Positions 2 through 64,000 of a stretch of DNA of 64,000 bases are shown here, piece by piece (the first letter of the stretch is position 1; the number at the start of each line of letters is the position of its first letter). The notes beneath the pieces are model-generated. The model was not told where the DNA came from and ran no database searches. It saw only the letters and a program-made list of their open reading frames with translations. This DNA is from an uncultured Acidobacteriota bacterium (GTDB lineage Bacteria > Acidobacteriota > UBA6911): positions 128,001 through 192,000 of the forward strand of contig CAWJKZ010000015.1 in the NCBI GenBank assembly GCA_963843575.1. Direction: 5' to 3'. A program made the translations under genes and the position numbers.

Positions 2-271
2 AATCCCGGAGACGGGATGGGGTTGCGGGGGTCGGCCGGTGTCACCGTGATTGCCCCGGATGGAACCACGGCCGACGCGCTGGCTACCGCGCTGAGCGTG
101 ATGCCGGTCGCGGATGGTATGAGGTTAGTAGAATCGATGGAGGGGGTCTCCGCCGCTGTCGTGAGGCGAAGCGACGGCGTGTTGAGGCGCACCTCCTCGA
201 AGCGGTTCCCGAAGGCGGCGGGCGTTCGACCCGCACTGCGCGAGAGCGCCACCGCCTCCGGGCGGCGCTGA
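2..271 (+). CDS. apbE: FAD:protein FMN transferase (ApbE family), C-terminal part; 5' end outside the window
   Basis: NPGDGMG...VTVIAPDGTTADALATALSVM matches the ApbE C-terminal motif (DPxTG...SVTVIAxxxxxADALxTA); frame is open to the window edge. Confidence 0.8.
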   Translation, partial: NPGDGMGLRGSAGVTVIAPDGTTADALATALSVMPVADGMRLVESMEGVSAAVVRRSDGVLRRTSSKRFPKAAGVRPALRESATASGRR

Positions 272-341
272 TTACATATACGCTCACCGGCTCAGGGCGA
301 ACGCGCGCTGCGCCCTCCGGCTTGAACACAGGTTGTCCCCG

Positions 342-1898
342 ATGAGTCTTAATCCCGAAAAGAAGAAAGCACGACGCAAGTCCCGTTTCCTGTTTCTCGC
401 CGGCATGGTCATCGGCGTGGCCGCCATCCTTGGGGCAAAAGCAGGCGTAGACTACAGCTCGACAGACAAATTCTGCGACCAGTTATGCCATTCGCACCCC
501 CATGCGACCCAGACGTGGATCAAGTCGACCCACTTCACGACGAAGAGCGGCGTCGTGACACACTGCGTGGACTGCCACCTGCCGGGCGGCGGCATTGAGT
601 ACTACACCGAGAAGGCGCGTCTGGGCCTGCACGACGCCTACGGCAAGCTGTTCAAAGACCCCGCCAAACTCGACTGGATTTCGAAGCGCAGCATCGAGGC
701 GGCCTCCGACTTCACCTACGACTCGGCGTGCGTCCGCTGCCATCAGAATCTGTTCAGCGCCAAGCTCACAAAGAAAGGCGTGGACGGCCACCTGCACTAT
801 CAGCGTGCGAAAGAGTCGCTGCGCTGCATCAGCTGTCATCTGACCGCAGGGCACTATCGGGACAAGAAGGCCGACGAAGGAGTGGAGGCCGGCGAGGACC
901 TGTTCGACCTGACTGCCTACCCGGAAAAGATCGAAGGGTTCAAGGGTTACACGGAGGTGCTTCCCGGAACGCCGGTGAAGTTCGAGATGGTGGCCGTGCC
1001 CGGCGGGTCTTTCCAGATGGGGAGCCCCGACACGGAGCCGTATCGCCGGGTGGACGAAGGCCCCCAGCGGACGGTCAAGCTGAGCCCGTTCTGGATCGGG
1101 CGCACGGAAGTGCGCTGGCGCGAGTGGGAGGTTTTCTACGCTCAGCGCGGCGTCGCCGGCAAGAATGATTCGGACTACGATCCCAACAAGGCGGTGTCCG
1201 GCCCCACCCCCCCATACGGTTCGCCCGACCAGGGTTGGGGGCGCGGTTCGCGGCCGGTCATCACCATGACCCACCATGCGGCAACGGTCTACTGCGAGTG
1301 GCTTACCTCGGTGACGGGCAAGAAATTCCGCCTGCCGACCGAGGCGGAGTGGGAATACGCCTGCCGGGCAGGCACCACGACGCCGTATTTCTTCCCCGGC
1401 GACCCGTCCAGGTTTACCGCCCACACCTGGTGGAACCGGCTGGTCGGCGCCAAGTTGACGCCGATCGGCGACTATGCCCGCTTTGCGGGCACAAGCCGCA
1501 TGCGGACGTTCCCCCCGAGCGCGAGCAAACCCAACCCGTGGGGCATCGTCAACATGCTCGGGAACGTGCGCGAGTTCTGCCTGGATTGGTACGACGCCAA
1601 GGCGTACGGCAAGTACCCGGCTTCCGGGGTCGAGAATCCGCGCGGTCCCGAAGAAGGAAAGGAACACGTCGTCCGCGGCGGATCGTACAAGTCCGACGCC
1701 GCGGACCTCCGCTCGGCCGCACGCGATTTCACGCGTCACGACCGGTGGATGGTCACCGACCCTCAGTCCCCCAAGAGCATCTGGTGGTATTCGGACTGCA
1801 CGGATGTCGGGTTCCGCGTTGTGCGCGAGTATGAACCCGGAGAAATACCGGGAGGGCCGAAGCCCGCCGCGGTCCAGACGGTTGCGCAGGGCAACTGA
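342..1898 (+). CDS. NapC/NirT-type membrane-anchored tetraheme cytochrome c fused to an FGE-sulfatase (SUMF1-like) domain
   Basis: N-terminal TM helix; heme motifs CDQLCH, CVDCH, CVRCH, CISCH; C-terminal FQMGS...EGPQRTV...RLPTEAEWEYACRAG...NMLGNVREFC...RGGS...VGFRVV. Confidence 0.85.
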   Translation: MSLNPEKKKARRKSRFLFLAGMVIGVAAILGAKAGVDYSSTDKFCDQLCHSHPHATQTWIKSTHFTTKSGVVTHCVDCHLPGGGIEYYTEKARLGLHDAYGKLFKDPAKLDWISKRSIEAASDFTYDSACVRCHQNLFSAKLTKKGVDGHLHYQRAKESLRCISCHLTAGHYRDKKADEGVEAGEDLFDLTAYPEKIEGFKGYTEVLPGTPVKFEMVAVPGGSFQMGSPDTEPYRRVDEGPQRTVKLSPFWIGRTEVRWREWEVFYAQRGVAGKNDSDYDPNKAVSGPTPPYGSPDQGWGRGSRPVITMTHHAATVYCEWLTSVTGKKFRLPTEAEWEYACRAGTTTPYFFPGDPSRFTAHTWWNRLVGAKLTPIGDYARFAGTSRMRTFPPSASKPNPWGIVNMLGNVREFCLDWYDAKAYGKYPASGVENPRGPEEGKEHVVRGGSYKSDAADLRSAARDFTRHDRWMVTDPQSPKSIWWYSDCTDVGFRVVREYEPGEIPGGPKPAAVQTVAQGN

Positions 1899-1993
1899 CC
1901 CCGTCACCGCGGCGGGGAGGGTGAGATTTTTGTCCCGGGGTTTGCCGAACTGCGGTACAGTGCATTGATCTGTCATTATCCGAGGAGGCAGGA

Positions 1994-3346
1994 ATGAAAG
2001 AGGACTTCAGTCGTCGAGACTTTTTTGGGGCGGCTGCCGTAGCCGGCGCCGGCCTCGTCATGGCTTCATGTGCTCAAAAGAAGACTTTCCCAAAGATGAC
2101 CTTTACGGACAAGGCACCGGACGGCCCCGTCCTGAAGGCCGGATTGGTCGGCTGCGGCGGCAGGGGCACGGGTGCGGCCGAGAATTTTCTCAAGGCCGGC
2201 CCCAATCTCCAGGTGGTCGCTCTGGCCGACATGTTCCAGGACCGGATCGACAAGTGCAAGACACGCCTCGAGAGCAAGTATCAGCAGAAGATCGCCCCCG
2301 AGCGGACATACCTCGGGTTCGACGCCTACAAGAAGCTGATCGATTCCGAAGTCGACATCGTCCTGCTGGCTGCTCCGCCGCACTTCCGCCCCATCCACTT
2401 CGATTATGCGGTGGAAGCGAAGAAACACGTCTTCGCCGAGAAACCGGTCGGAGTCGACCCGGTGGGCATCCGCGCGCTGATGGCTTCGGGCGAAAAGGCG
2501 AAGGCCTACAACCTCAACGTTGTGACCGGCACGCAGCGCCGGCACCAGCGCCAGTACCTCGAGAACTACAGCCACGTCAGCAACGGCGCCATCGGCAAGA
2601 TCCTCGCTGCCCGCTGCTACTGGAACCAGGGCCAGCTCTGGTACAAGCAGCGCCAGAAGGAGTGGAGCGACATGGAAGCCATGCTGCGCGACTGGGTCAA
2701 CTGGACATGGCTCTCCGGCGACCACATCGTCGAGCAGCACGTGCACAACATCGACGTCATCGCCTGGTTCATGGGCGCTCACCCGGTCAAGGCCGTGTCG
2801 ATGGGCGGACGCATGCGGCGCGTGACCGGCGACCAGTTCGACTTCTTCTCGACCGACTTCACGTTCGAGAACGGCGTGCACCTGCTCAGCCAGTGCCGCC
2901 AGATCGACGGCTGCGACAACGAAATCTCCGAGTACCTGGTCGGCACCGAAGGCTCCACCAACTGCAGGGGCACGATCTGGGACAAGGAAGGCAAGATAGT
3001 GTGGCAGTTCCAGGAAGCCGCGAAGGAACAGGAGACCCCTGGACAGGTCACCATGCTGGATCCCGAAAAGTCCGACGTCTCGCCCTATGATCAGGAGCAC
3101 GTCGACCTGGTCACCGCAATCCGGACGAACAAGCCGATCAACGAGGCCGAGAGCACGGCCAAGTCGACCCTGACCGCAATAATGGGCCGCATTTCGGCCT
3201 ACACCGGCAAGGAAACGACCTGGGAGCAGATGATGTCCCTGGATCTGAAGCTCGGGCCCGCCGAATATGCCATGGGCCCGATCCCCACTATCCAGGCGAC
3301 CATTCCGGTCCCCGGCACCAGCAAGGTCGTGCTTCCAGCGGAATAG
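1994..3346 (+). CDS. Tat-exported Gfo/Idh/MocA family oxidoreductase
   Basis: SRRDFF twin-arginine signal; GLVGCGGRGTG Rossmann motif; AEKP; WLSGDHIVEQHVH; RBS GAGGAGG. Confidence 0.9.
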   Translation: MKEDFSRRDFFGAAAVAGAGLVMASCAQKKTFPKMTFTDKAPDGPVLKAGLVGCGGRGTGAAENFLKAGPNLQVVALADMFQDRIDKCKTRLESKYQQKIAPERTYLGFDAYKKLIDSEVDIVLLAAPPHFRPIHFDYAVEAKKHVFAEKPVGVDPVGIRALMASGEKAKAYNLNVVTGTQRRHQRQYLENYSHVSNGAIGKILAARCYWNQGQLWYKQRQKEWSDMEAMLRDWVNWTWLSGDHIVEQHVHNIDVIAWFMGAHPVKAVSMGGRMRRVTGDQFDFFSTDFTFENGVHLLSQCRQIDGCDNEISEYLVGTEGSTNCRGTIWDKEGKIVWQFQEAAKEQETPGQVTMLDPEKSDVSPYDQEHVDLVTAIRTNKPINEAESTAKSTLTAIMGRISAYTGKETTWEQMMSLDLKLGPAEYAMGPIPTIQATIPVPGTSKVVLPAE

Positions 3347-3579: not shown

Positions 3580-4449
3580 TTAATGCACCCAGCGTCCGAT
3601 CCCGTGCGTCAGGCGCGAGAAGGATTTCCTGGCCGAGGCCGGGATGTCCGGGATCATTCCCGACAGGGTACTCAGGTCGGGCAAGGATGGGACCATCCTG
3701 CGCCATCGTGGGGCCGGGGTGCGGTAACGAAGCGCCATCCTGGCGCCGTAGTATGCCAGCGCGCCGGCCGCGGTTCCGGCAAGCGCACGGTTTTCGGGAG
3801 ACCATCGACGCAGCCGTCCGAAGTCGTACGAAGGCATGCGGCGCATCACCCTGTCCCAACGCGAAACTGGTTTGTGCCGCTCCAGCGCGTAACGCACGCC
3901 GTAGTACGTTCCGATCCCGCCGGCCGTGAGTCCGAGAACCCTCCACGCCCGCGGCATTCCTCCCGGTACGCGCCGGCGGTGGCGCCGGTGTCCCTTCAGT
4001 GCCGGGGCGTTGTCGGCGGAATCGTGCACGGAGATTCTGTTTTCCGCACTTGTCACGCCAGGGGTACGGGCCACCTCGGTCATAAGGTCGTCGACTTCGT
4101 CCCTCAGGATATCGCCGGTCAGGATGACACTGCCGCCCTGGGCATTGACCGAGATGGCGGACGGGTACGACACCACGTGTCCAATCCGTGACCGGACTCT
4201 CGCTTCCAGAACGCTGTCGTCGCCAACCCCTTCCTGTCCTGCCACGCCCACACTGGCCAGGGTGCCCTGTGCCCGGTTGCCGATGTCTCTGGCGGTTGCG
4301 TCCAGTGCCCTGTGCCCCTTCCTCCACCAACTCGAAATCTTGTCGCGCACAAGCGCACGTCTGCGTCGCCCCGCTGCCGGGTCCAGGAAATACATGACGA
4401 CGCCTGCGCCAAGGCCTACTCCGCCCAACAGTGCAATTTTCCGGTTCAT
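3580..4449 (-). CDS. BON-domain membrane protein
   Basis: [38 protein letters not shown]-terminus; BON domain DDSVLEARVRSRIG...GVTSAENRI; GGAGG RBS before ATG at 4449. Confidence 0.8.
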   Translation of the reverse strand: MNRKIALLGGVGLGAGVVMYFLDPAAGRRRRALVRDKISSWWRKGHRALDATARDIGNRAQGTLASVGVAGQEGVGDDSVLEARVRSRIGHVVSYPSAISVNAQGGSVILTGDILRDEVDDLMTEVARTPGVTSAENRISVHDSADNAPALKGHRRHRRRVPGGMPRAWRVLGLTAGGIGTYYGVRYALERHKPVSRWDRVMRRMPSYDFGRLRRWSPENRALAGTAAGALAYYGARMALRYRTPAPRWRRMVPSLPDLSTLSGMIPDIPASARKSFSRLTHGIGRWVH

Positions 4450-4624
4450 GGCTGCTCCTCCTTGAGTGACACAGAAAACCCCGCCCCCGAGAGAGCAATT
4501 TCTGGCCCACGCGCGCCGAAAGCGGAACGGCTGCAGGTGCAATCACCTCCGGGGGCGCCGGTCGCGAAGCGGCTCCTGAGTTAAGGGGAGTTCCTCCCTG
4601 GCGGGACCCAAACAAATGGTAACC

Positions 4625-4894: not shown

Positions 4895-6094
4895 ATGAAA
4901 CGACGCTTTGATCTTACCAGGCGCGAGTTCATCCTGTCGTCAGCAGCGGCAGGGACCGCGGCCACCATTACCATCGTCAAACCCGAATCGGTTCGGGGCA
5001 CGCAGGCCAACAGTGCCATCACCCTCGGCTGGGTCGGCCTGGGCGGTCGCGGCACCGCCGATGCCAAGGGGCTCGCGGCTGCCGGCGCCCGGATCACGGC
5101 GCTGGGCGACGTGTTCCAGGAGCGGATTGACGCGGCGCGCAAGATTTTCACCGTCGACGACAGCATGTGTTTCACCGGTTTCGATGCCTACAAGAGAGTC
5201 TGTGACCAGAAAGTCGACGCCGTGATGCTGGTGACGCCGCCGGGATTCAGGCCCGACGAGTTCAGGACGGCGGTGGAGGCAGGCAAGCACATTTTCGCCG
5301 AGAAGCCGCTGGCGGTGGACGCCTGGGGCTGCCGGGACGTGCTGGCGAACGGCGAGAAGGCGAAGACGAAGAAGTTGAGCGTGGTGGTTGGGCTGCAGCG
5401 GCGCTACAGCACAGCCTACCAGGAGGCGCAGAAACTCATCGCCGGCGGAAGGCTGGGCACCATAGTCACGGCGCGCGGATTCTATCTGACCGGCGACGTG
5501 TGGAAAGGGAGAACCTGGCCGCGCGCCGACTTCCCTTCCGAGCAGCACTGGATGGCTCGGAACTGGTATTATTTCAGGGCGCTGTCGGGCGACCTGATCA
5601 CGGAACAGAACATACACAACCTGGATGCGCTCAACTGGGTCCTGGGATCGCACCCGGACCGTTGCGTCGGCTACGGCGGGCGCAAGTGGCGCAAATACAT
5701 CGGAGACATCTTCGATCACTTCAACGTCACCTATGAGTACCCCGGGGGCGTACACCTGACCTTCATGTCGGGCCAGTTCGCCACGCTGCACGACAGTTCG
5801 GAGCAAGTCCTGGGCACCGATGGCACCTTCATGACGACCGGCGGGATGCGCATCGAGGGTAAGGACCCGTGGAAGTACGAAGGCGATAGCGACTCCAACA
5901 AGAACGAGTGGGAAGCGTTCGTCAACAGCGTCAAGAACGGCCAGCCCCGTGCCGACACGGCTCACGCCGTCGACGGCACGTTCACCACGATCCTGGGCCG
6001 GGAAGCCGCCTACACCCGTAAAGAGGTTGAGTGGACGAAGCTCTGGGAAAAGAACGAGAAACTGGAGCGCAAGGCCTATCCGGTGGCGACCTAG
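4895..6094 (+). CDS. Tat-exported Gfo/Idh/MocA family oxidoreductase
   Basis: TRREFI signal; GWVGLGGRG; AEKPLA; RNWYYFRALSGDLITEQNIH. Confidence 0.9.
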   Translation: MKRRFDLTRREFILSSAAAGTAATITIVKPESVRGTQANSAITLGWVGLGGRGTADAKGLAAAGARITALGDVFQERIDAARKIFTVDDSMCFTGFDAYKRVCDQKVDAVMLVTPPGFRPDEFRTAVEAGKHIFAEKPLAVDAWGCRDVLANGEKAKTKKLSVVVGLQRRYSTAYQEAQKLIAGGRLGTIVTARGFYLTGDVWKGRTWPRADFPSEQHWMARNWYYFRALSGDLITEQNIHNLDALNWVLGSHPDRCVGYGGRKWRKYIGDIFDHFNVTYEYPGGVHLTFMSGQFATLHDSSEQVLGTDGTFMTTGGMRIEGKDPWKYEGDSDSNKNEWEAFVNSVKNGQPRADTAHAVDGTFTTILGREAAYTRKEVEWTKLWEKNEKLERKAYPVAT

Positions 6095-6160: not shown

Positions 6161-7093
6161 ATGATGAAAAACGTGAATCGCCGCGAGTTCCTGAAAGCCA
6201 CTTCGTCTCTCGCCGTGAGCGGCGCCGTGCTAGGCGCCGGCTTGGCCGTGCGCCCGGAAGCGGCGCCGGCGGCGCCGGCCCCCGGGGCGGGCCCCTGGAA
6301 GGGATTCTGCATCGGCGTCCTCCCGAAGGAGATGAGCGTACTGGACAAGTTCAAGCTGGCCAAGAAGGTCGGCATCGAGGGCATCGAGCCCAACACCCTG
6401 ACAACCCCCGAGGAAGTAGCCGAATACAAGGAAGCAGCCAAAAACACCGGGGTCAAGATTCTCTCGATCATGAACTCGGACCATTGGAAGTTTCCGCTTT
6501 CGGATAACGATCCCGAAGTGGTCAAGAAGAGCATCGACGGCGTGAAGACGTCGCTGAAGAATGCGGCGGAACTGGGAGCCCCCGTCATCCTCCTGGTGCC
6601 AGCGGTGGTCGCCGCGGATGTCCGTTATGCGGACGCCTACACGAGATCGCAGAAGATCATCACGGAGCAGCTGCTCCCGATGGCGAAGGACCTGAAGGTC
6701 ATCATCGGCATCGAAAACGTCGGCAACCGCTTCCTTCTCAGCCCTCTTGAATTCGCCCGCTACGTCGACGAATTTAAAAGCCCCTGGGTCAAGGCCTATT
6801 TCGACGTCGGCAACATCGTTTCGAACGGCTGGCCCCAGGACTGGATTCGCACCCTGGGCCCCAGGCTCTGCAGCATCCACATCAAGAGATTCGAACCGGG
6901 GAAGGATTACCCGAAATACGATCCGGCCGATAGGCGCGGGCAGGGCGTCGGCTGGCCTGAAGTTCGGAGCGCTCTGGCAGAAGTCAAATACACCGGCTGG
7001 ATCACCGCGGAAGTCCGCGGGGGCGACGAGGCCTACCTGACCGAGCTCAGCGCCCGGATGGACAAGATTCTCGCCGGAGACAGCCCCGCCTAG
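6161..7093 (+). CDS. Tat-exported sugar phosphate isomerase/epimerase (AP endonuclease 2 / xylose-isomerase-like TIM barrel)
   Basis: NRREFLK signal; IENVGNRFLLSP, FDVGN, IHIK, TAE metal-binding motifs. Confidence 0.85.
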   Translation: MMKNVNRREFLKATSSLAVSGAVLGAGLAVRPEAAPAAPAPGAGPWKGFCIGVLPKEMSVLDKFKLAKKVGIEGIEPNTLTTPEEVAEYKEAAKNTGVKILSIMNSDHWKFPLSDNDPEVVKKSIDGVKTSLKNAAELGAPVILLVPAVVAADVRYADAYTRSQKIITEQLLPMAKDLKVIIGIENVGNRFLLSPLEFARYVDEFKSPWVKAYFDVGNIVSNGWPQDWIRTLGPRLCSIHIKRFEPGKDYPKYDPADRRGQGVGWPEVRSALAEVKYTGWITAEVRGGDEAYLTELSARMDKILAGDSPA

Positions 7094-8768: not shown

Positions 8769-8907
8769 GGTTCGCGCAAGAATGAGTTCACATTTTGGCG
8801 CGAGCCCCAAGCTACAACGTAAATCCCCGAGAATCCGCGGCACTTCCACAATAGCTGGCCTGCTCACTGGTTTCAGGGTAAAGTTGTGGGTTCCCCCGGG
8901 GGTGCGC

Positions 8908-11900
8908 ATGGGAGCCCTACACCGTTTCTACCGGATGGCCGGTGCCGGATTCGAGAACTGTTTTTACGTCGAGGCCTGCGAGCCGCTGGAGCCGAACGAA
9001 CTCCAGGTACTGAGATGGCTTCTGGCCGAGACGTTCGAGCCGGACTCGTTTTCGTTCTCCTCGCTGATAGAAGCCGGCGGCGCCGTGGCCGAGGTCGGCC
9101 CGCGCCTGAATTTCGAGACCGCGTTCTCCACCAACGCCGTGTCGATCTGCCGCGCCTGTGGGTTGGGCAAGGTCGTGCGCGTCGAAAAGTCGAGACGCTG
9201 GTTGCTCCCGACCGGGGTTGCGCCGGCGGAATTCGTCGCCGCGCACCATGACCGCATGACCGAGTGCCGTTACCCGGAACCCCTCGCCAGTTTTGAAACC
9301 GGACTCGTGCCTGAGCCGGTGCGGCGGATCCCCGTGCTCGAGCAGGGATGTGAAGCCCTGCGCGCCCTCAACCGTGAATTGGGCCTCGGGATGGACGCCT
9401 GGGACCTGGATTTCTACTACGATTTGTTCCGCAACCATTTCCGGCGCGACCCCACCGACGTGGAGTGCTTCCAGCTTGCCCAGGCCAACAGCGAACATTC
9501 CCGGCACTGGTTTTTCAAGGGTCAGCTCATCATCGACGGCCAGGCGGCGCCCGAAACACTGTTGCAGATCATCAAGTCCACTCTCGAAGCGAACCCGTCG
9601 AACAGCGTCATCGCGTTCCACGACAATTCCAGCGCCATCCGGGGCTACGACGTATGCACGATCTCCCCCCGCGCTCCCGGCCGATGCTCGCCGTTCGACG
9701 TCACGCGAAATGCCTACGACATCATCTTCACCGCGGAGACCCACAACTTCCCGAGCGGGGTCGCGCCATTTCCCGGGGCCGAGACCGGAACGGGCGGACG
9801 AATCCGCGACGTGCACGCGACGGGCCGCGGAGCACTGGTCGTCGCCGGCACCGCGGGTTACTGCACGGGCGGGCTCAACATCCCGGGCCACGCCATTCCC
9901 GGGGAGGACCCCGGATTCGCCTATCCGGGCAATCTCGCGACCCCGCTGCAGATCCTCATCGGGGAAAGCAACGGCGCGTCGGACTACGGCAACAAGTTCG
10001 GAGAACCGCTCATCCAGGGTTTCGCGCGCTCCTTCGGGTTGCGGCTGCCGGACGGGAGCCGGCGCGAATGGGTCAAGCCGATCATGTTTACGGGCGGCGT
10101 CGGGCAGATCGACGCCCGGCACATTCGCAAGGGCGAACCACGTCGGGGGATGCTCGTGGTGCAGGTGGGGGGGCCCGCGTACCGCATCGGTATCGGCGGC
10201 GGGGCCGCCTCGAGCATGATGCAGGGGGAAAACAAGGAAGAGCTCGATTTCAGCGCCGTCCAGCGCGGCGACGCCGAGATGGAGCAGAAAATGAACCGGG
10301 TCATCCGCGCCTGCGTGGAACTGGGGGAGGCCAACCCCATCGTGAGCATTCACGATCAGGGCGCCGGCGGACCCTGCAACGTCGTCACGGAACTCGTGGA
10401 CCCGGCTGGCGGGCGCATCGAGATCAGAAACATCCGGCTGGGCGACCGGACGATGTCGGTGCTCGAGATCTGGGGTGCCGAGTATCAGGAGCGCGTAGCC
10501 CTCCTGTTGCATGCCAAGCGCCTGGCGGGATTCCAGGAGATCTGCGCCCGCGAGAAGGTGAGCTGCGAAATCCTCGGGGAAGTGACCGGTGACGGCAGTA
10601 TCACGGTGCACGACGAGATCGACGATTCGTGCCCGGTTGACCTGGAGCTCGCCCCGATCCTCACCAACATACCCCAGAAGCGGTTCGAGCTGGAGCGGCT
10701 GGCGCAGGCTCGCTCGCCCCTGCGCCTTCCGCCGGATCTGAGGCTGGTGGATGCGGTGCGCGACGTGTTGCGCCTCCCGGCGGTCGGTTCGAAGGGGTTT
10801 CTCGTGCGCAAGGTGGACCGCAGCGTCACGGGCCTGATCGCCCGGCAGCAGTGTTGCGGGCCGCTCCACCTGCCGGTCTGCGACGTGTCGGTGGTCGCTC
10901 AGAGTCACTTCGGTCTGACCGGTGCGGCCCTCAGCATCGGCGAGCAACCGGTCAAGAGCCTGGTCGACGTGCGGGCCGGGGCGCGCATGGCCGTCGCCGA
11001 AGCATTGACCAACATGGTTTGGGCCCTCATCTCCGACCTGTCGCACGTCAAGTGCTCGGTCAACTGGATGTGGGCCGCGAAGACCCCCGGCGAGGGTGCC
11101 GCGATGCACGATGCCGCCGTCGCGTTGCGCGACCTGATGGTCGAACTCGGCATCGCGGCCGACGGCGGGAAGGACAGCCTCTCGATGGCGGCCCGCGTCG
11201 GCGAGGAACTGGTCAAGGCCCCTGGCCAGGTGGTGGTCTCGGGGTACGCCTCGATGCCCGATGTGACCCGCGTCGTGACCCCGGACCTCAAGAGTCCCGG
11301 CGAGAGCCGTCTGATGCTGCTGGACCTGGCTCCAGGGAAGGCGCGCCTCGGGGGCTCCGCCCTCGCCCAGGCGCTTGGCCAGGTCGGGGATGAATCTCCC
11401 GACATCGACGATCCTGCCCTGCTCAAGCGCGCCTTCGTCGTGCTGCAGGACCTCATCCGGGAGGGCCTGGTGCTCGCCGGCCACGATCGCAGCGACGGCG
11501 GCCTGGTCACCACCGTGGCCGAGATGGCCATGGCCGGGAACTGCGGCGTCGACATCGGGCTGGAGGGGGAGTTCGACGATGTTTCTCAACTCTTCGCCGA
11601 GGAAGCCGGGCTGGTTCTGGAATACCTCCCGCAGCACGAGGAACGCATCCGAACGCTGCTCGGCGGGTGCGGCGTCCCGTTCCGCGTCCTGGGCGACACC
11701 ATCAGGGAGCGCCGCGTCACGATGCGCCGGGGCGGCCTCCGCCTCCTGGATCTACCGACCCCACTGCTGCTCTCCTGGTGGGAGGAGACCTCCGACCGCA
11801 TCGAGAGCCTGCAGATGAACCCCGACTGCGCCCGGGAGCAGGCCCTGGCGCACGACCGTCCGGGTCCGCGCTACACGCTTGCGTTCGACCCCGAACCCAC

Positions 11901-12728
11901 GACCGGCGCCTGTCCTTCAGCGAAAGACCAAGCCGAAGGTGGCCATCATCAGGGAAGAGGGGAGCAACGGCGACAGGGAAATGACGTCGGCATTCTATGC
12001 CGCCGGGTTCGAGCCCTGGGACATCACGATGTCGGACCTGCAGCGGGGCGACGTCGAGCTCGACCCCTTCAGGGGCGTCGTGTTCGTCGGAGGCTTCTCC
12101 TACGCCGACGTGCTCGACAGCGCCAAGGGCTGGGCCGGCATCATCCGGTTCGACGAGTCGCTGCGCCACATGTTCGACGGCTTCTACCGGCGCCAGGACA
12201 CGTTTTCGCTCGGCGTCTGCAACGGTTGCCAGCTCATGGCGCTCCTCGGATGGATCCCGTGGGCTGGTATCCCCGACACCAGCCAACCCAGGTTCATCAG
12301 GAACACCTCGGGCCGGTTCGAGTCCCGCTGGGCCACGGTGAAGATCGTCGAGAGCCCCGCCGTCATGCTGAGCGGCATGGAAGGCTCCACGCTCGGCATC
12401 TGGGTCGCCCACGGCGAAGGGCGCTTGCTCTGCCCGGACGGCTCGGTGCTCGACGAGATCCGGCGGCGGAACCTGGCGCCGATGCATTTCGTCGACGACT
12501 CGGGTGAAGCGACGGAGAAATACCCGTTCAACCCGAACGGATCGACCCTCGGGATAACTGTCGCTCTGTTCGGCCGACGGCCGGCACCTGGCGATGATGC
12601 CGCATCCCGAGCGCTCCTTCCTGAAATGGCAGTGGCCTTGGATGCCCGAGGACTGGCGGGCTTCTCTGCGCGCATCCCCGTGGTTGCGCATGTTCCAGAA
12701 TGCGCGTGCCTGGTGCGAAGCGGGGTAG
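8908..12728 (+). CDS. purL: Phosphoribosylformylglycinamidine synthase, large single-chain PurL; two +1 frameshifts (about 11902 and 12561), probably sequence errors
   Basis: QANSEHSRHWFF, AETHNFP, HDQGAGG, GGKDSLSM; glutaminase domain GVCNGCQ and MMPHPER in successive frames; stop TAG 12726-12728. Confidence 0.92.
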
Positions 12729-29451: not shown

Positions 29452-29495
29452 CAAGTGGGTCCGGGCTGACGTAAACCGGCCCGGTTCCCATCTTT
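29452..29495. repeat. Degenerate, collapsed family A REP
   Basis: caagtgggtccgggctgacgtaaaccggcccggttcccatc. Confidence 0.5.
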
Positions 29496-29595
29496 GCAAA
29501 TGCTCGCACGGCCGATCGCGGGATCCGCCGGCCAACCCAATCTTGTGGATTTTCGGGGTGCTCCGGACGAGAATGGCTCATCCTGGAGGGGTGCC

Positions 29596-30955
29596 ATGGC
29601 AGAACGGAAATCCACGTCGGACGGTGCGGGGAGCATGCCCCGCCGCGAGTTCGTAAAAAAGACTTCGCTCCTGGCGGTGGGCGGGGCGGTGACGCAGTTC
29701 CCGTACGTCGTCACGGGGCACGCCGAGCCGGACGATCCGATCCGGGTCGGCGTGATCGGTTGCGGCGGGCGCGGCACGGGTGCGGCGCTCAACATCCTGG
29801 GCGCGCAGACGAGGGTTGTCTATCCGCGGACGGGCTACCACACGGAGAACGCCCTCCCGAATGCGCGGGTACAGGTGGAGAACGTGAAGGTGACGGCGCT
29901 GGCCGACCTGTTTCGAGACCGGCTGGATCATTGCCGGACGCAGCTGGCCGCAGTGGGCAACCCCGTTGCCGAAGACCACTGCTTCTCCGGGCTTCGACGC
30001 CTACAAGAAGCTGACGCATGCTCCCGGATGTGAATTACGTCATCCTCGCCACCCCGCCGCATTTCCGCCCTGCGACGCTGCGCGCCGCGGTCGAGGGCGG
30101 GCAAGCACGTGTTCATGGAAAAGCCGCTGGCCGTGGACGGTCCGGGCGTGCGCTCGGTCATCGAATCGGCCGAAATTGCCACGAAAAAGGGGCTGGGCAT
30201 CGCCTGCGGCGCCCAGCGACGGCACCAGTCGAGCTATGTCGAGGCGGCGCAGAGGATCCGCGACGGTGCCATCGGCGAGATCGTCGAGTGCCGCGCTTAC
30301 TGGAACGGCGGGGGATTGTGGGTGATCGCGCGCCAGCCCGGCTGGTCCGACATGGAGTGGCAGCTTCGCAACTGGAACTATTTCACCTGGCTGTCGGGCG
30401 ATCACATCGTCGAGCAGCACCTGCACAACTACGACGTCATCAACTGGATCCTGGGCAAGCCGCCGGTCAAGGCCACCAGCCTCGGCGGCCGCCAGGTGCG
30501 CACCGCCCCGGAGTACGGCAACGTTTTCGACCATTTCGCCACCGAGTTCGAGTACGACAACGGCATGCGGCTCTTCAGCCAGTGCCGCCAGATCGACGGC
30601 TGCTCCGGGTAACGTGAGCGAAGCCATGGTGGGGACCAAAGGGACGACAAACTGCAGGGACTCGATCAAGGGGGCGCAGGAGTGGCGCTACGGCGGGCCC
30701 AATCCCAACCCGTACGAGGTGGAGCACGCGGAACTGATCGCGAGCATCAGGGCCGGCAAACCGCTGAACGAGGCTCGTTCCGTCGCCGAAAGCACTCTGA
30801 TGGGGATCATGGCGCGCAATTCGGCCTACACCGGGCAGACCCTGACCTGGGAGCAGGTCCTCAATTCCAAGCAGGATCTGTCGCCGCCGAATTACGAGTT
30901 CGGCGACCTGCCGATAGCCCCGGTGCCCGTGCCGGGATCGTACACCTTCGAATGA
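29596..30955 (+). CDS. Tat-exported Gfo/Idh/MocA oxidoreductase; four +1 frameshifts (about 29990, 30017, 30096, 30608), probably sequence errors
   Basis: PRREFVK signal; GVIGCGGRGTG; successive frames give GFDAYKKL / VILATPPHFRP / FMEKP...WLSGDHIVEQHLH / GIMARNSAYTG; clear paralogue of 1994-3346. Confidence 0.85.
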
Positions 30956-60839: not shown

Positions 60840-63156
60840 TCAGGGGCGGGCGAAGAGGATGTAGGCTAGAAGGGCGACAACACAAATCAGTAACGCGACG
60901 CCCGCCAGTACGACGACCCGCAAGCCCCGTTCGCCAGCGCGCGGCGGCGCTGCGCCGAGGTTCAGGTTCGACAGCGGCTGCTGGCGGGGCACCGGGGCCG
61001 GAGGCTCCGCAGCTTCCCGGGCCGGTTCCGTGGGATTCGACCGGCGGGCCTCCCGGATTCTGGCTAGGAGCGTCAAGGCCTGCTCGTTGCGCGGCGCGAG
61101 TCCCAGGACGCGGTTTACCTGTTCTTCCGCGGCTTCGGGCGCGTCGGTGATGAAGAGCTGGCGCGCCTCGACGAGGCCCGCCTCGACTGCCGACTGCAGC
61201 TCCTGCTGGCGGATGCCGGCCTCGGCCTCGTCGATCCCCACACGGACGATTGGGTCATCCCCAAGCCACTCGGCCGCGCGGTGCAGGGCGGCGCGGCTCT
61301 CTCTGTACCTCCCTTCCCCCAGCAGCTTGAATCCCGCGACCTTCTCACGTTCTCCGGCGGTCCTGCGTTCGAGCTGCGCATGTTCGGCTTCGACGGCCGC
61401 CAGCGCCTGTTTTCGGAGTTCGGCCGCCTCCGTGCACGACGGGTCGAGGGCCAGTATCTCGTTGGCGATGCGGACGGCGTCCGTGTGAGCAGCGGTGGAG
61501 AGCGATTGGCGTGCCGAGTCGAGCAGGGACGAGACCCGTGCCCGACGCTCTTCCCGGAGACGCTCACGCTGCGCTGCCTCCTGTTCGGCGCGCTGAATCC
61601 GCGAGGTCAGCTCGGCCGCGGCGGTGCTCGTTCCGGCCAGTTCCAGCGCCCGCGCGACCTCGGTGCGCGCACCGGGGAGGTCTCCGGCTTCGAGCCGGCT
61701 GCGTGCCGCCGCGAGCGCTTCGAGGTTCCGGCTTTCGTTCAGCTCCGCCTGTTCTCTCAAGAGATCCCTGGTGCCGGCGAGCATCGCCAGGGCCCCGGCG
61801 TGCGCCGGATTGAGCCGGAGCGCCTGGTCCAACAGGCTTGCGCACGTCTGAAGGTCGCCTGAGGCCCCTGCTGCGGCGGCCTTCGTGAAGAGCTCCTGCG
61901 CCTGCTCAAGCCGCTGGCGCTCTTCCCTTGCACTTTCCAGCCGGGCATCCAGCTCGGACCGCAGGGAGGCGGCTTCGCTGTACGTCGGGTCGTCCCCGAC
62001 GACGTAGTTCAGCATCTGGAGGGCGTTTTCCAGCTGACCGGTCCGGTCCAGGTCCTGCACTTCCATCAGGAGGTAGGACGACCGTTTCCGTTTATCGAGC
62101 AAGGCGTTCACCCGGTCGCGCTCGCGCTCGATATGGGTGCGCTGCTTGGCCAGTGCCATGTATTCGAACTGCGACGTGCGTTTCCAGCCGGTGCCCCCGT
62201 CGGACCTGGTGCCGTCGCGGTTTTCGGGTGCCCGCTTCAATTCTTCCAGCCGAGGTGCACTCTCACCCAGTAGCCCGGGGTTGGCGCCGACGAGCCGTTC
62301 GAGCTCCGCGATGACGTCGAGATTTTCTTGCCGGAGCCTCTGTTTGCGGTCGTCGAGGGTCAGCCGGAAAATCTCCAGCTCGTTCAGCATGTCCTCGATG
62401 TTCTGATAGCGCGCGCCCGGGTCTTTTGCCAGCGCCTTTGCTATCACCGTCTCCAACTCCGGGGGGAGGTCGGGGACGACCTTGTCGATCGCCTCGGGCT
62501 CGCTTTGGAGGATCTTGTAGGTGATCGCGTATTCGGAGTCGGCGTAGAAAGGCTTGGTGTGGGTGAGAAGCTCGTAACAGACGACGCCAAACGAGAAGAT
62601 GTCGGACCGGTGGTCGGGCGCCTCGCCCTTCACCTTTTCGGGCGCCATGTACGAGGGGGTGCCGGCCAGGCTCCTGTGCGTCGGATCTGACCCGACCATC
62701 CGGGCGAGGCCGAAGTCGAGGACCTTCACCTGTCCGGCGCGGGTCAGGAATATGTTTCCCGGGCTTGATGTCGCCGTGGACCACCCCCATCGAATGCGCG
62801 TGGGCGAGCCCCTCGCAGACTTCCACCATGATCCGGAGCTTTTGTTCGAGCGACATCGGGGTGCGTTGTGCGATGTGTTCCTTGAGCTCGCTGCCATCCA
62901 GGAATTCCATCGCGATGAATGCGATGCCGTCGGCTTCGTCCATTTCGTAAATGGTGACGATGTTCTTGTGCGAGAGGGAACCGGCGGAGCGGGCCTCCAT
63001 CAAGAGGCGGTTGCGGAGTTCGGGATCCGGGTTGAGCTGTGCCGACAGGGTTTTTATAGCGACGGTGCGCCCGATGCGAGGGTCGAGCGCCTTGTAGACG
63101 ACCCCCATGCCCCCTTTCCCGACGGTATCGATGACCTGGTATTTGCCGATGTTCAC
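60840..63156 (-). CDS. Hanks-type Ser/Thr protein kinase with TPR-like helical region and C-terminal TM; one +1 frameshift near 62760
   Basis: GKGGMGVVY, VAIK, HGDIKPG(N), DFGLAR, GTPSYMAPE, SDIFSFG; TPR-like repeats; hydrophobic C-terminus. Confidence 0.88.
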
Positions 63157-63382
63157 AAGAGTAACGGAACGGTTAGGTTGTTGTCGGGCAAGATCATAGC
63201 ATTGACCCGAAGGAAAGGGAGGCCAGAATCTGGAGTGTGGCGCCCGTGCCCGCACCTGCACGCATCTTCGACGTGCGCGCACGAATACCCCGAAAACCAG
63301 AAACCCGCCATTTTCGTGGCAGGTAGTTACAGTTGCGAGCGAGCTGCTGACAAGGCGCTCTTGCCGGGGCTACACTAACGCT

Positions 63383-64000
63383 ATGCAGATCGCAAAACTC
63401 GCGATTCTCGCCCTGTTGGCTGTTGCACCGGCCGGTTGGCGGCAGGGCACGGCGCAGAAGGCGGCTCCGGCCGGGACGCCCGCGCAGAAGGCTGAGATAC
63501 GGCGCCTGGTCCTGAAGGACGGAACGTACGAAAACGTCAATCGATACGAAATCAAAGGGGACCGGGTGCGTTTTCTCAGCTCCGAACGGCGCGAGTGGGA
63601 AGAAATGCCCGCTTCCCTCATCGATTGGCCCGCCACGGAGAAATATGCCGCCGATGCGGCTGCGGAAAAACGGTCGCGGCTTCGCGACCTCGCCGAGAGC
63701 TCGGCCAGCGATCGCGCCGAAACAGAGTCGTCCACCCCCACCGTGGCCCCAGGGATACGGTTGCCCGACACGGGTGGCGTCTTCCTGCTGGACGTCTACC
63801 AGGGTAGGCAGGAGCTGACCCCAGTCCATCAGAACGGGGCCGATGTGAACAAAAACACCGGGGCCAACATACTCCGCGGCATCATCAACCCCGTGGCCGG
63901 CTCCAAACGAACGATCGAGTTGAAAGGTCCGCACGCGCCGGTCCAGTCTCATGTGACCGCGCCGGTCTTTTACGTGGCGATCGACCTGGAAGGCGACTAC
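63383..64000 (+). CDS. Secreted hypothetical protein, 3' end outside the window
   Basis: MQIAKLAILALLAVA...RLVLKDGTYENVNRYEIKGDRVRFLSSERREWEEMPASLIDWPATEKY; frame open to the window end. Confidence 0.75.
   Translation, partial: MQIAKLAILALLAVAPAGWRQGTAQKAAPAGTPAQKAEIRRLVLKDGTYENVNRYEIKGDRVRFLSSERREWEEMPASLIDWPATEKYAADAAAEKRSRLRDLAESSASDRAETESSTPTVAPGIRLPDTGGVFLLDVYQGRQELTPVHQNGADVNKNTGANILRGIINPVAGSKRTIELKGPHAPVQSHVTAPVFYVAIDLEGDY

Follow-up and report, generated by a model that had tools for sequence, protein, structure and literature searches.

A 64,000-nt stretch of the genome of an uncultured acidobacterium, hereafter the window, begins within a set of three linked genes that may encode a periplasmic dehydrogenase:quinone module. 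The genes are apbE, for a flavin transferase; a gene that fuses a tetraheme cytochrome of the NapC/NirT type to a domain of the formylglycine-generating enzyme (FGE)/SUMF1 fold; and gfo1, for a Gfo/Idh/MocA dehydrogenase (Gfo1) with a signal for twin-arginine translocation (Tat). We propose that flavin mononucleotide (FMN), held covalently on the FGE-like domain, re-oxidizes enzyme-bound NAD(P)H and feeds the hemes, a reading to which we give an even chance. The FGE/SUMF1 fold might then be an unrecognized class of ApbE-flavinylated domain, whose swinging FMN enters the active site of a Tat-exported, NAD(P)-locked Gfo enzyme. This second claim is a serious possibility, if a little short of an even one.

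The proposed electron path starts with the Gfo enzyme, which would be exported in folded form with tightly bound NAD(P) and would oxidize a sugar-like substrate in the periplasm. FMN, attached by ApbE to Thr292 (T292) in a flexible loop, would take the hydride from the bound NAD(P)H. NAD(P)H gives up a hydride, which hemes cannot take, and so a flavin-type converter between two-electron and one-electron transfer is needed. The flavin would hand the electrons one at a time to the four hemes in the membrane-anchored NapC/NirT domain, from which they would reach a membrane quinone. A flavo-cytochrome conduit between bound NAD(P)H, covalent FMN, hemes and quinone was the original prediction for this DNA, made from its letters alone. 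Gene linkage, the loop and the ApbE lineage support it, and its individual steps are proposals.

The three-gene arrangement is conserved far beyond chance, as synteny counts show. Relatives of the fusion are abundant and uncharacterized: of 8000 scored candidates at least 7935 reach E<=1e-10, and identity is 52-100% for the best 120. In databases they are named only as “SUMF1/EgtB/PvdO family” or “formylglycine-generating enzyme”, with which atlas clusters agree. We scanned the neighborhoods of FGE-like relatives in one genome per species and obtained 78 loci. These loci, extracted from genomes, carry L-numbers, L001 being the window's own locus and G000 its own genome. Two insertions in the FGE-like domain are present in 40 of the 78 loci and absent from the other 38; L058, flagged for insertion 1 by a column rule, was dropped as an alignment artifact because it has no insertion 2. 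Among the 40 insertion-bearing loci, 26 have a Gfo1 homolog, mostly directly downstream, 14 have ApbE, and 30 have either. The Pedobacter isolate of L023, for example, carries all of FGE-like gene, Gfo and ApbE, and Eudoraea adriatica (L029) has the FGE-like/Gfo pair but no ApbE alongside. Ten have neither neighbor, and three of these loci stop within 60 nt of the gene. Neither a Gfo1 homolog nor ApbE occurs at any of the 38 loci without the insertions. Conserved synteny had been set beforehand as a test of the original prediction, and the gene order is indeed kept across phyla.

All eight full-length NapC fusions with downstream DNA have a Gfo1 homolog directly downstream (45-59% identity); they come from Acidobacteriota, Bacteroidales, Prolixibacteraceae, Draconibacterium and one unclassified metagenome-assembled genome (MAG). 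Within the window's own phylum, the fusion (E<=1e-100) was found in 6 of 301 sampled genomes, its own included: one of six genomes in its own family and all four in another. The order apbE-fusion-gfo is kept in all five of the other same-phylum genomes that have the fusion. Glycoside hydrolases or xylose-isomerase-like TIM barrels occur in several of 15 module neighborhoods (Pfam, 119 open reading frames (ORFs)). These neighbors lend weak backing to another part of the original prediction, that the redox chemistry concerns sugars.

The two insertions are strongly conserved, and the first contains a candidate flavin site. Insertion 1 has the consensus DA[VI][TS]x[PA][TS]xPY. Four of its residues, G290, T292, P293 and P294, do not vary among 22 aligned sequences, and in a set of 101 the conservation of T292 is at least 90%. 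The consensus of insertion 2 is W..[TQ]DPQxPKSxW[WY], with D476, P477, Q478, P480, S482 and W484 invariant in 101 sequences. Insertion 2 is present in every insertion-1-bearing relative whose sequence reaches there and is absent from 38 generic FGE homologs. In the AlphaFold2 model of the fusion (predicted local distance difference test (pLDDT) 89.2, predicted template modeling score 0.87), only the insertion-1 loop is poorly defined within the domain (block means of 66, 56 and 77). Such low pLDDT values (56-77) would fit a mobile, flexible arm.

The sequence of this loop resembles the target motif of ApbE. The passages on the motif in a 2025 review (PMC12052999) give it as D-x-x-[S/T]-G-A-[S/T], with FMN on the last residue. 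In their account flavinylation is little affected by D->A and remains at about 50% after a G->A or A->V change. At the aligned column the canonical motif is found unaltered in L003 (DGITGAT) and L009 (DGISGAT), and with a single departure in L029 (DAISSAS, at -2) and L005 (DAIVGAT, at -3). The majority of the fusions have DA[IV][TS]GPT, and the wider clade has DA[VI][TS][RHQ]P[TS]. In the window's loop, K-A-V-S-G-P-T292, the serine at -3, the glycine at -2 and the threonine at 0 agree with the motif. T292 is thus our candidate for the covalent FMN site of the FGE-like domain. One sub-branch, of Pirellulaceae, Rubripirellula and Pirellula (L024, L025, L030, L033), has DAIT[AVS]P[TS]ELY or PLY together with DPNxPxSPWW. 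It has no Gfo neighbor, and ApbE only in L024; it may serve a different partner.

Several observations speak against the flavin reading. Two positions of the window's motif are non-canonical, with K for D at -6 and P for A at -1; in most of the wider clade the departures are at -2 and -1 (R/H/Q-P). To our knowledge, the literature consulted reports no test of a proline at -1. ApbE adjoins only 14 of the 40 clade loci. Proline at -1 also occurs in L006, L007, L008, L036 and L023, whose genomes show only other ApbE types (the first four are MAGs; L023 is an isolate draft assembly). No protein that fuses an FGE-like domain to Gfo was found among the best 120 of 1641 long relatives (913-2605 aa). 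Those relatives are multi-domain generic FGE-repeat proteins, none with PF01408, and because such long repeat proteins crowd the list, the missing fusion is weak evidence. Finally, ApbE could be tied to Gfo in another way, because two loci pair ApbE with a Tat-signal Gfo and have no FGE-like gene. In L082:6403-9342 (contig C24 of the window's genome) a 180-aa DoxX-like membrane protein lies between the two; in L091:1462-3703, from a Draconibacterium MAG, they stand side by side and the ApbE has no obvious signal peptide. These loci are a second kind of ApbE-Gfo link that lies outside the explanation favored here.

We also considered whether the residue at -1 tracks the type of ApbE, proline marking the dedicated lineage and alanine the general enzymes. 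This co-variation holds in all 14 clade loci with an adjacent ApbE (13 of the module lineage, L023 of another type), in five further same-phylum genomes, and in G001, G003 and G004, which have alanine at -1 and no module-type ApbE. It was dropped because it fails in the five proline-bearing loci named above.

Module-adjacent ApbEs form their own, dedicated lineage. In a quick maximum-likelihood tree of 27 ApbEs (14 module-adjacent and 13 non-module, with the long branch of L091 at the drawing root), a branch with an SH-like approximate likelihood ratio (SH-aLRT) support of 99 separates 12 of the 13 non-module proteins plus L023 (Pedobacter) from 13 of the 14 module-adjacent ones. The module label requires three changes on this tree vs 9.4 in shuffles, and none of 500 shuffles was as low. 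The window's ApbE belongs to the module-linked lineage. Furthermore, the ApbEs of the five other same-phylum genomes match module-type ApbEs best (221-306 vs 148-161 bits). The FGE-like protein is favored as the client of ApbE because L011, L022, L024 and L043 pair an FGE-like gene with ApbE and have no Gfo. The complete chromosome of L009 has one ApbE, so that enzyme would serve all clients there.

Classic ApbE clients were not found in or around the module. The window lies at positions 128001-192000 of contig C15 in a 6.68-Mb genome of 27 contigs that is 88% complete. This genome has four ApbE genes and no match to PF04205, PF03116 or PF10029 (FMN_bind, NqrB/RnfD and DUF2271), which is no proof of absence because the assembly is incomplete. 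Likewise, no FMN_bind, DUF2271 or NqrC-like gene is present among the 119 ORFs around the 15 module loci (Pfam). The original prediction had named a canonical ApbE substrate or a Nap/Nrf partner just upstream as evidence against it, and we found no such substrate and no Nap, Nrf or Tor partner, either upstream or elsewhere in the assembled genome.

A different explanation of the same genes is that the FGE-like domain is a cofactor-less docking scaffold that keeps Gfo at the membrane cytochrome, in the style of PorK/GldK, and that ApbE serves some other client or acts as a periplasmic flavin adenine dinucleotide (FAD) pyrophosphatase. The resemblance of the loop to the ApbE motif would then be a coincidence. 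PorK and GldK do have the same fold in a structural role. The absence of ApbE from 26 of the 40 clade loci, the ApbE-Gfo pairs that have no FGE-like gene and the non-canonical motif of the window would suit it too. However, a scaffold would leave the circuit unclosed, as NAD(P)H cannot reduce heme directly. It also fits poorly with three observations: L003 and L009 have exact canonical motifs at this aligned position, the ApbEs have a dedicated lineage, and some loci pair an FGE-like gene with ApbE and have no Gfo. We consider it improbable.

With four ApbE paralogs and no classic client match, it may be that all ApbE clients of this organism are non-canonical. Each of the other three ApbE genes adjoins a different candidate client, one being the Gfo pair of L082. 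On contig C21 (~61265-63965), a 515-aa protein (L081:4265-5812, plus strand) has an N-terminal DoxX membrane domain, a textbook flavinylation motif (HAITGATIT) and then a domain of about 300 aa with no Pfam match. ApbE follows it directly (L081:5682-6965, plus strand), in what looks like a different flavinylated, quinone-linked module. On contig C9 (L080:4500-6805), a Tat-signal DUF362 protein is directly upstream of ApbE, and L080:36-1053 encodes a group II intron reverse transcriptase/maturase.

The FGE-like domain shares a fold with several enzymes and falls within none of their families. Its nearest solved structure is PvdO (5hha; Foldseek E 9e-19, 29% identity, probability 1.00), followed by FGE structures (Foldseek E ~1e-16 to 1e-17, probability 1.00). 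In phmmer the PvdO and FGE matches reach 1e-22 and 2e-21, and further Foldseek relatives are CalU17 (6vqp), ToxD (7spq) and EgtB. All NCBIfam equivalogs were missed: the best, “dihydropyoverdine dehydrogenase” (PvdO), scored 104.4 bits vs a cut-off of 500, GldK 92.9 vs 350, EgtB 51.8 vs 360 and SenA 46.1 vs 420. The domain's cysteines are at 321, 344, 416 and 489 only.

The domain is very unlikely to be a functional FGE. The copper-binding cysteine pair of FGE sits, as we take it, in the segment just after the RGGS motif, and that segment here, RGGSYKSDAADLRSAARD, has no cysteine. The PF03781 match and the database names (“formylglycine-generating enzyme”, “SUMF1/EgtB/PvdO family”) could suggest a true FGE or a protein-maturation factor wired to the quinone pool, with unrelated neighbors. 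We find this hardly credible. There is no cysteine in the RGGS...R segment, no sulfatase gene in the first 9 kb of the window or in 15 kb upstream, and only the insertion-bearing clade is linked to Gfo and ApbE.

Catalysis on a small molecule is a further alternative, which we judge unlikely. Here the FGE-like domain, like its fold relatives PvdO, EgtB/OvoA, ToxD and CalU17, would act on the product or substrate of Gfo, the link between the two would be metabolic, through successive reactions instead of direct electron transfer from bound NAD(P)H, and the hemes, perhaps with a flavin, would serve the FGE-like site. The nearest solved folds are indeed those of enzymes or their helpers (PvdO, FGEs, CalU17, ToxD, EgtB), and the two strongly conserved insertions could form a substrate pocket; the PvdO profile is the best match, although its score is far under the cut-off. 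Yet such catalysis would leave Gfo still without a route for cofactor recycling, the metal-ligand pattern of FGE (the cysteine pair) is absent, and the linkage to ApbE and the flavinylation-like loop suit an electron carrier at least equally.

The N-terminal half of the fusion belongs to the NapC/NirT superfamily (PF03264 at residues 13-174, 90.3 bits vs a cut-off of 24.1). The single long helix that precedes the hemes would be its membrane anchor. The heme motifs are C48-x3-C52-H53, C78xxCH82, C133xxCH137 and C165xxCH169, and the cysteines and histidines of all four are invariant in 22 aligned homologs. The first motif is CX3CH in the window and in acidobacterial relatives; in KSB1, Latescibacteria and Bacteroidota it is CXXCH, shorter by one residue in the alignment.

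We reject the fusion as a NapC, NrfH or TorC proper, given scores below every NCBIfam equivalog cut-off (NrfH 65 vs 134.2; NapC, PRK10617, 46.5 vs 349; napC_nirT 44.2 vs 310.6; TorC 50.5 vs 478.2) and the lack of any cognate reductase found. It is the only NapC/NirT protein found in the genome by phmmer. The genome, at its 88% completeness, has no match to NrfA (PF02335), and its three matches to molybdopterin enzymes are on contigs C25 and C10, with none on C15. The prediction that no nap, nrf or tor reductase gene lies nearby therefore holds. The front end varies across module loci and may be a NapC tetraheme, a planctomycete-type monoheme cytochrome c domain (L017 and L019; CXXCH also in L015, L018 and L028) or nothing. 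Since the NapC part can be replaced or missing in relatives, the invariant core is the FGE-like flavoprotein, as we propose it to be, plus Gfo.

The direction of flow might instead be reversed. NapC/NirT would then oxidize quinol and send electrons through the FGE-like domain to Gfo, which would reduce a keto-sugar or similar acceptor in the periplasm as a new respiratory reductase. NapC, NrfH, CymA and TorC do oxidize quinol. The step from menaquinol (about -74 mV) to bound NAD(P)+ (the free couple lies near -320 mV) would, however, be strongly uphill, and many clade members are in aerobic Bacteroidota without any quinol-oxidizing module. Reverse flow is thus very improbable, even if Gfo/Idh/MocA enzymes are reversible and the Zymomonas glucose-fructose oxidoreductase (GFOR) reduces fructose, as stated in parts of PMC8121099.

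Gfo1 is a member of the Gfo/Idh/MocA family (PF01408 40.9, PF22725 35.7 and PF02894 28.7 bits, all above cut-offs) with a Tat signal (TIGR01409, 17.2 vs 16.7 bits). Across 68 Gfo1 homologs, each of the RR-x-F residues (R7, R8, F10) shows at least 90% conservation. The signal (1994-2071) ends in a lipobox-like MASC, and Gfo1 may therefore be a membrane-held, Tat-exported lipoprotein. It falls far below the equivalogs BT_2158_fam (39.7 vs 750) and IolG (63.7 vs 355), and its best PDB match is a myo-inositol 2-dehydrogenase (E 5e-13). The window's genome has 42 Gfo/Idh/MocA matches. Of 14 module-adjacent Gfo proteins in other lineages, 12 score higher against Gfo1 than its best own-genome paralog does (254-509 vs 238 bits). 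Thus, by sequence comparison, one Gfo ortholog group travels with the FGE-like gene. A predicted complex of Gfo residues 27-450 with FGE-like residues 196-505 scored 0.30 and 0.10 against a mark of 0.32 and is used neither way.

The module combines features of several known systems. Like the tetraheme or pentaheme quinol dehydrogenases NrfH, NapC, CymA and TorC, the fusion places four heme c motifs behind an N-terminal membrane helix. Unlike them, it carries an FGE-like domain, has CX3CH as its first heme motif and has no Nap, Nrf or Tor partner that we could find; the direction we propose is quinone reduction rather than quinol oxidation. The likeness of its C-terminal domain to FGE (SUMF1) and PvdO is one of fold. 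In contrast to those proteins, it has no cysteine pair, has two insertions, is fused to or partnered with a cytochrome, and has Gfo and ApbE, not sulfatase or pyoverdine genes, as its linked neighbors. With ApbE-flavinylated systems (NqrC/RnfG FMN_bind, DUF2271; eLife 2021, PMC8238504) it has in common an apbE gene beside a membrane-linked redox protein, a motif-like loop and the logic of a covalent flavin as an extracytosolic electron relay. It differs from them in that the presumed flavinylated domain has the FGE/SUMF1 fold and a motif that often has proline at -1.

Known periplasmic sugar oxidations offer the closest parallels for Gfo1. Zymomonas GFOR and the BT2158/AL3 glycoside 3-dehydrogenase also have a Tat signal and the Gfo/Idh/MocA fold, with a non-exchangeable cofactor that we suppose for Gfo1 as well. 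Xylose-isomerase-like TIM barrels are nearby, as in the BT2156-2159/AL clusters. Gfo1 is only distantly related to these enzymes, which recycle NAD(P)H with a second sugar, whereas a protein acceptor is proposed here. LacABC and the FAD glucoside 3-dehydrogenase likewise pass electrons from periplasmic sugar oxidation to the respiratory chain through a c-type heme (passages in PMC8121099 and PMC9007349). In those systems, however, the catalyst is an FAD-dependent subunit, and here it would be an NAD(P)-bound Gfo, with a different protein, of FGE fold, carrying the flavin. Parts of Liu et al. (PMC8121099) and Nasseri et al. (bioRxiv 10.1101/2024.03.25.586180) describe Gfo enzymes that are exported by Tat and bind NAD tightly. 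The same parts leave open how the bound NAD is re-oxidized in vivo and name cytochromes as a possibility; the latter, on oxidative glycoside cleavage, calls Gfo turnover in vivo unresolved.

The module appears to be a new variation on flavinylation-linked extracytosolic electron transfer, of which we found no printed description. FGE, sulfatase, Gfo and NapC do not occur in the main texts of PMC8238504 and bioRxiv 10.1101/2024.03.13.584918, nor does NirT in the main text of PMC8238504. We found no literature that connects FGE-like proteins to ApbE or flavinylation, or to Gfo enzymes, although supplementary tables of the surveys could hold such clusters.

If the proposal is correct, periplasmic Gfo enzymes would have a protein through which their electrons reach cytochromes and the quinone pool. 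Tat-exported Gfo/Idh/MocA enzymes are very numerous in glycan-degrading bacteria, and their nicotinamide cofactor is non-exchangeable in the periplasm. A dedicated protein acceptor would explain in-vivo turnover for one large Gfo ortholog group. Periplasmic glycan oxidation would be directly respiratory in Acidobacteriota, Bacteroidota, Planctomycetota, Verrucomicrobiota and Gemmatimonadota, sugar oxidation there would be linked to energy conservation, and a new fold would join the flavinylated domains. Thousands of uncharacterized proteins called “SUMF1/EgtB/PvdO family nonheme iron enzyme” or “formylglycine-generating enzyme” would need new names.

Features of the module and its surroundings. 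Positions are those of the whole 64,000-nt window unless a locus or contig is given; family calls are by Pfam and NCBIfam profiles with curated cut-offs.
Feature	Position	Strand	Basis
apbE, 3' end (last 89 aa; flavin transferase)	2..271	+	PF02424, 36.1 bits vs cut-off 25.6
apbE, whole gene (376-aa ORF)	L001:14141-15271 = contig C15:127141-128271	+	PF02424, 259.4 bits vs 25.6
NapC/NirT tetraheme::FGE-like fusion, 521 aa	333..1898	+	PF03264 and PF03781
N-terminal helix, residues 8-42 (putative membrane anchor)	354..458	+	Single long helix in AlphaFold2 model; hydrophobic stretch
Four heme c motifs	474..839	+	CDQLCH 474-491 (CX3CH), CVDCH 564-578, CVRCH 729-743, CISCH 825-839
FGE/SUMF1-fold domain, residues 218-466 (Pfam); fold extends to ~residue 500	984..1730	+	PF03781, 141.9 bits vs 23.3
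Insertion 1, KAVSGPTPPY, candidate flavinylation loop	1188..1217	+	Alignment; T292 codon 1206-1208
Insertion 2, WMVTDPQSPKSIWWYSD, residues 472-488	1746..1796	+	Alignment of FGE-like ORFs
Tat-signal Gfo/Idh/MocA dehydrogenase (Gfo1), 450 aa	1994..3346	+	PF01408, PF22725, PF02894; TIGR01409
Second Tat-type Gfo/Idh/MocA paralog, possible accessory, outside conserved core	4895..6094	+	Pfam
Tat-signal xylose-isomerase-like TIM barrel (AP_endonuc_2), possible accessory	6161..7093	+	Pfam and NCBIfam

The three genes are co-directional and closely spaced, as the original prediction had it and as ORFs and Pfam matches bear out. The gap between apbE and the fusion is 61 nt, or 70 nt when counted from an alternative ATG at 342 that the database gene call uses (518 aa), and the fusion-gfo gap is 95 nt. 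On the upstream side, an aminotransferase-like ORF with a Tat signal (L001:12320-13633, minus strand; no Pfam match at E<=0.001) diverges from apbE, so the operon begins at apbE. The next gene downstream of gfo (3580-4542, minus strand) is convergent, and apbE, the fusion and gfo therefore form their own unit. A promoter and terminator scan of L001:13500-18500 gave no promoter-like site and three terminator-like sites vs 4.0 expected. Contigs from metatranscriptomes (three runs of one sediment study) match gfo only (1996-3329), as pieces of 170-394 nt at 97-100% identity; on the fusion there are only pieces of about 30-40 nt over a conserved motif. Such contigs cannot show a transcript or an operon, and DNA carry-over is possible.

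Some genes downstream of the module recur elsewhere. The convergent gene, a 320-aa ORF between the two Gfo genes, has a sub-threshold BON match (17.9 bits vs 27) and occupies the same place in L002, the only locus where the second Gfo paralog is also kept in place. The AP_endonuc_2 TIM barrel family adjoins the module in L005, L035 and L038 as well, and L028 has a homolog ~4.5 kb upstream on the opposite strand. Farther along the window, at 29470-30952 (plus strand), a Gfo1-like gene is split over three overlapping frames, its best piece 54% identical to Gfo1 over 171 aa. PF22725 matches within it at 30109-30612, and the break reflects either a pseudogene or assembly frameshifts. An ORF at 8782-12507 (plus strand) is purL-like, as judged from its translation alone. 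Its last ~200 residues are arginine-rich and apparently out of frame, which suggests a frameshift near 11800.

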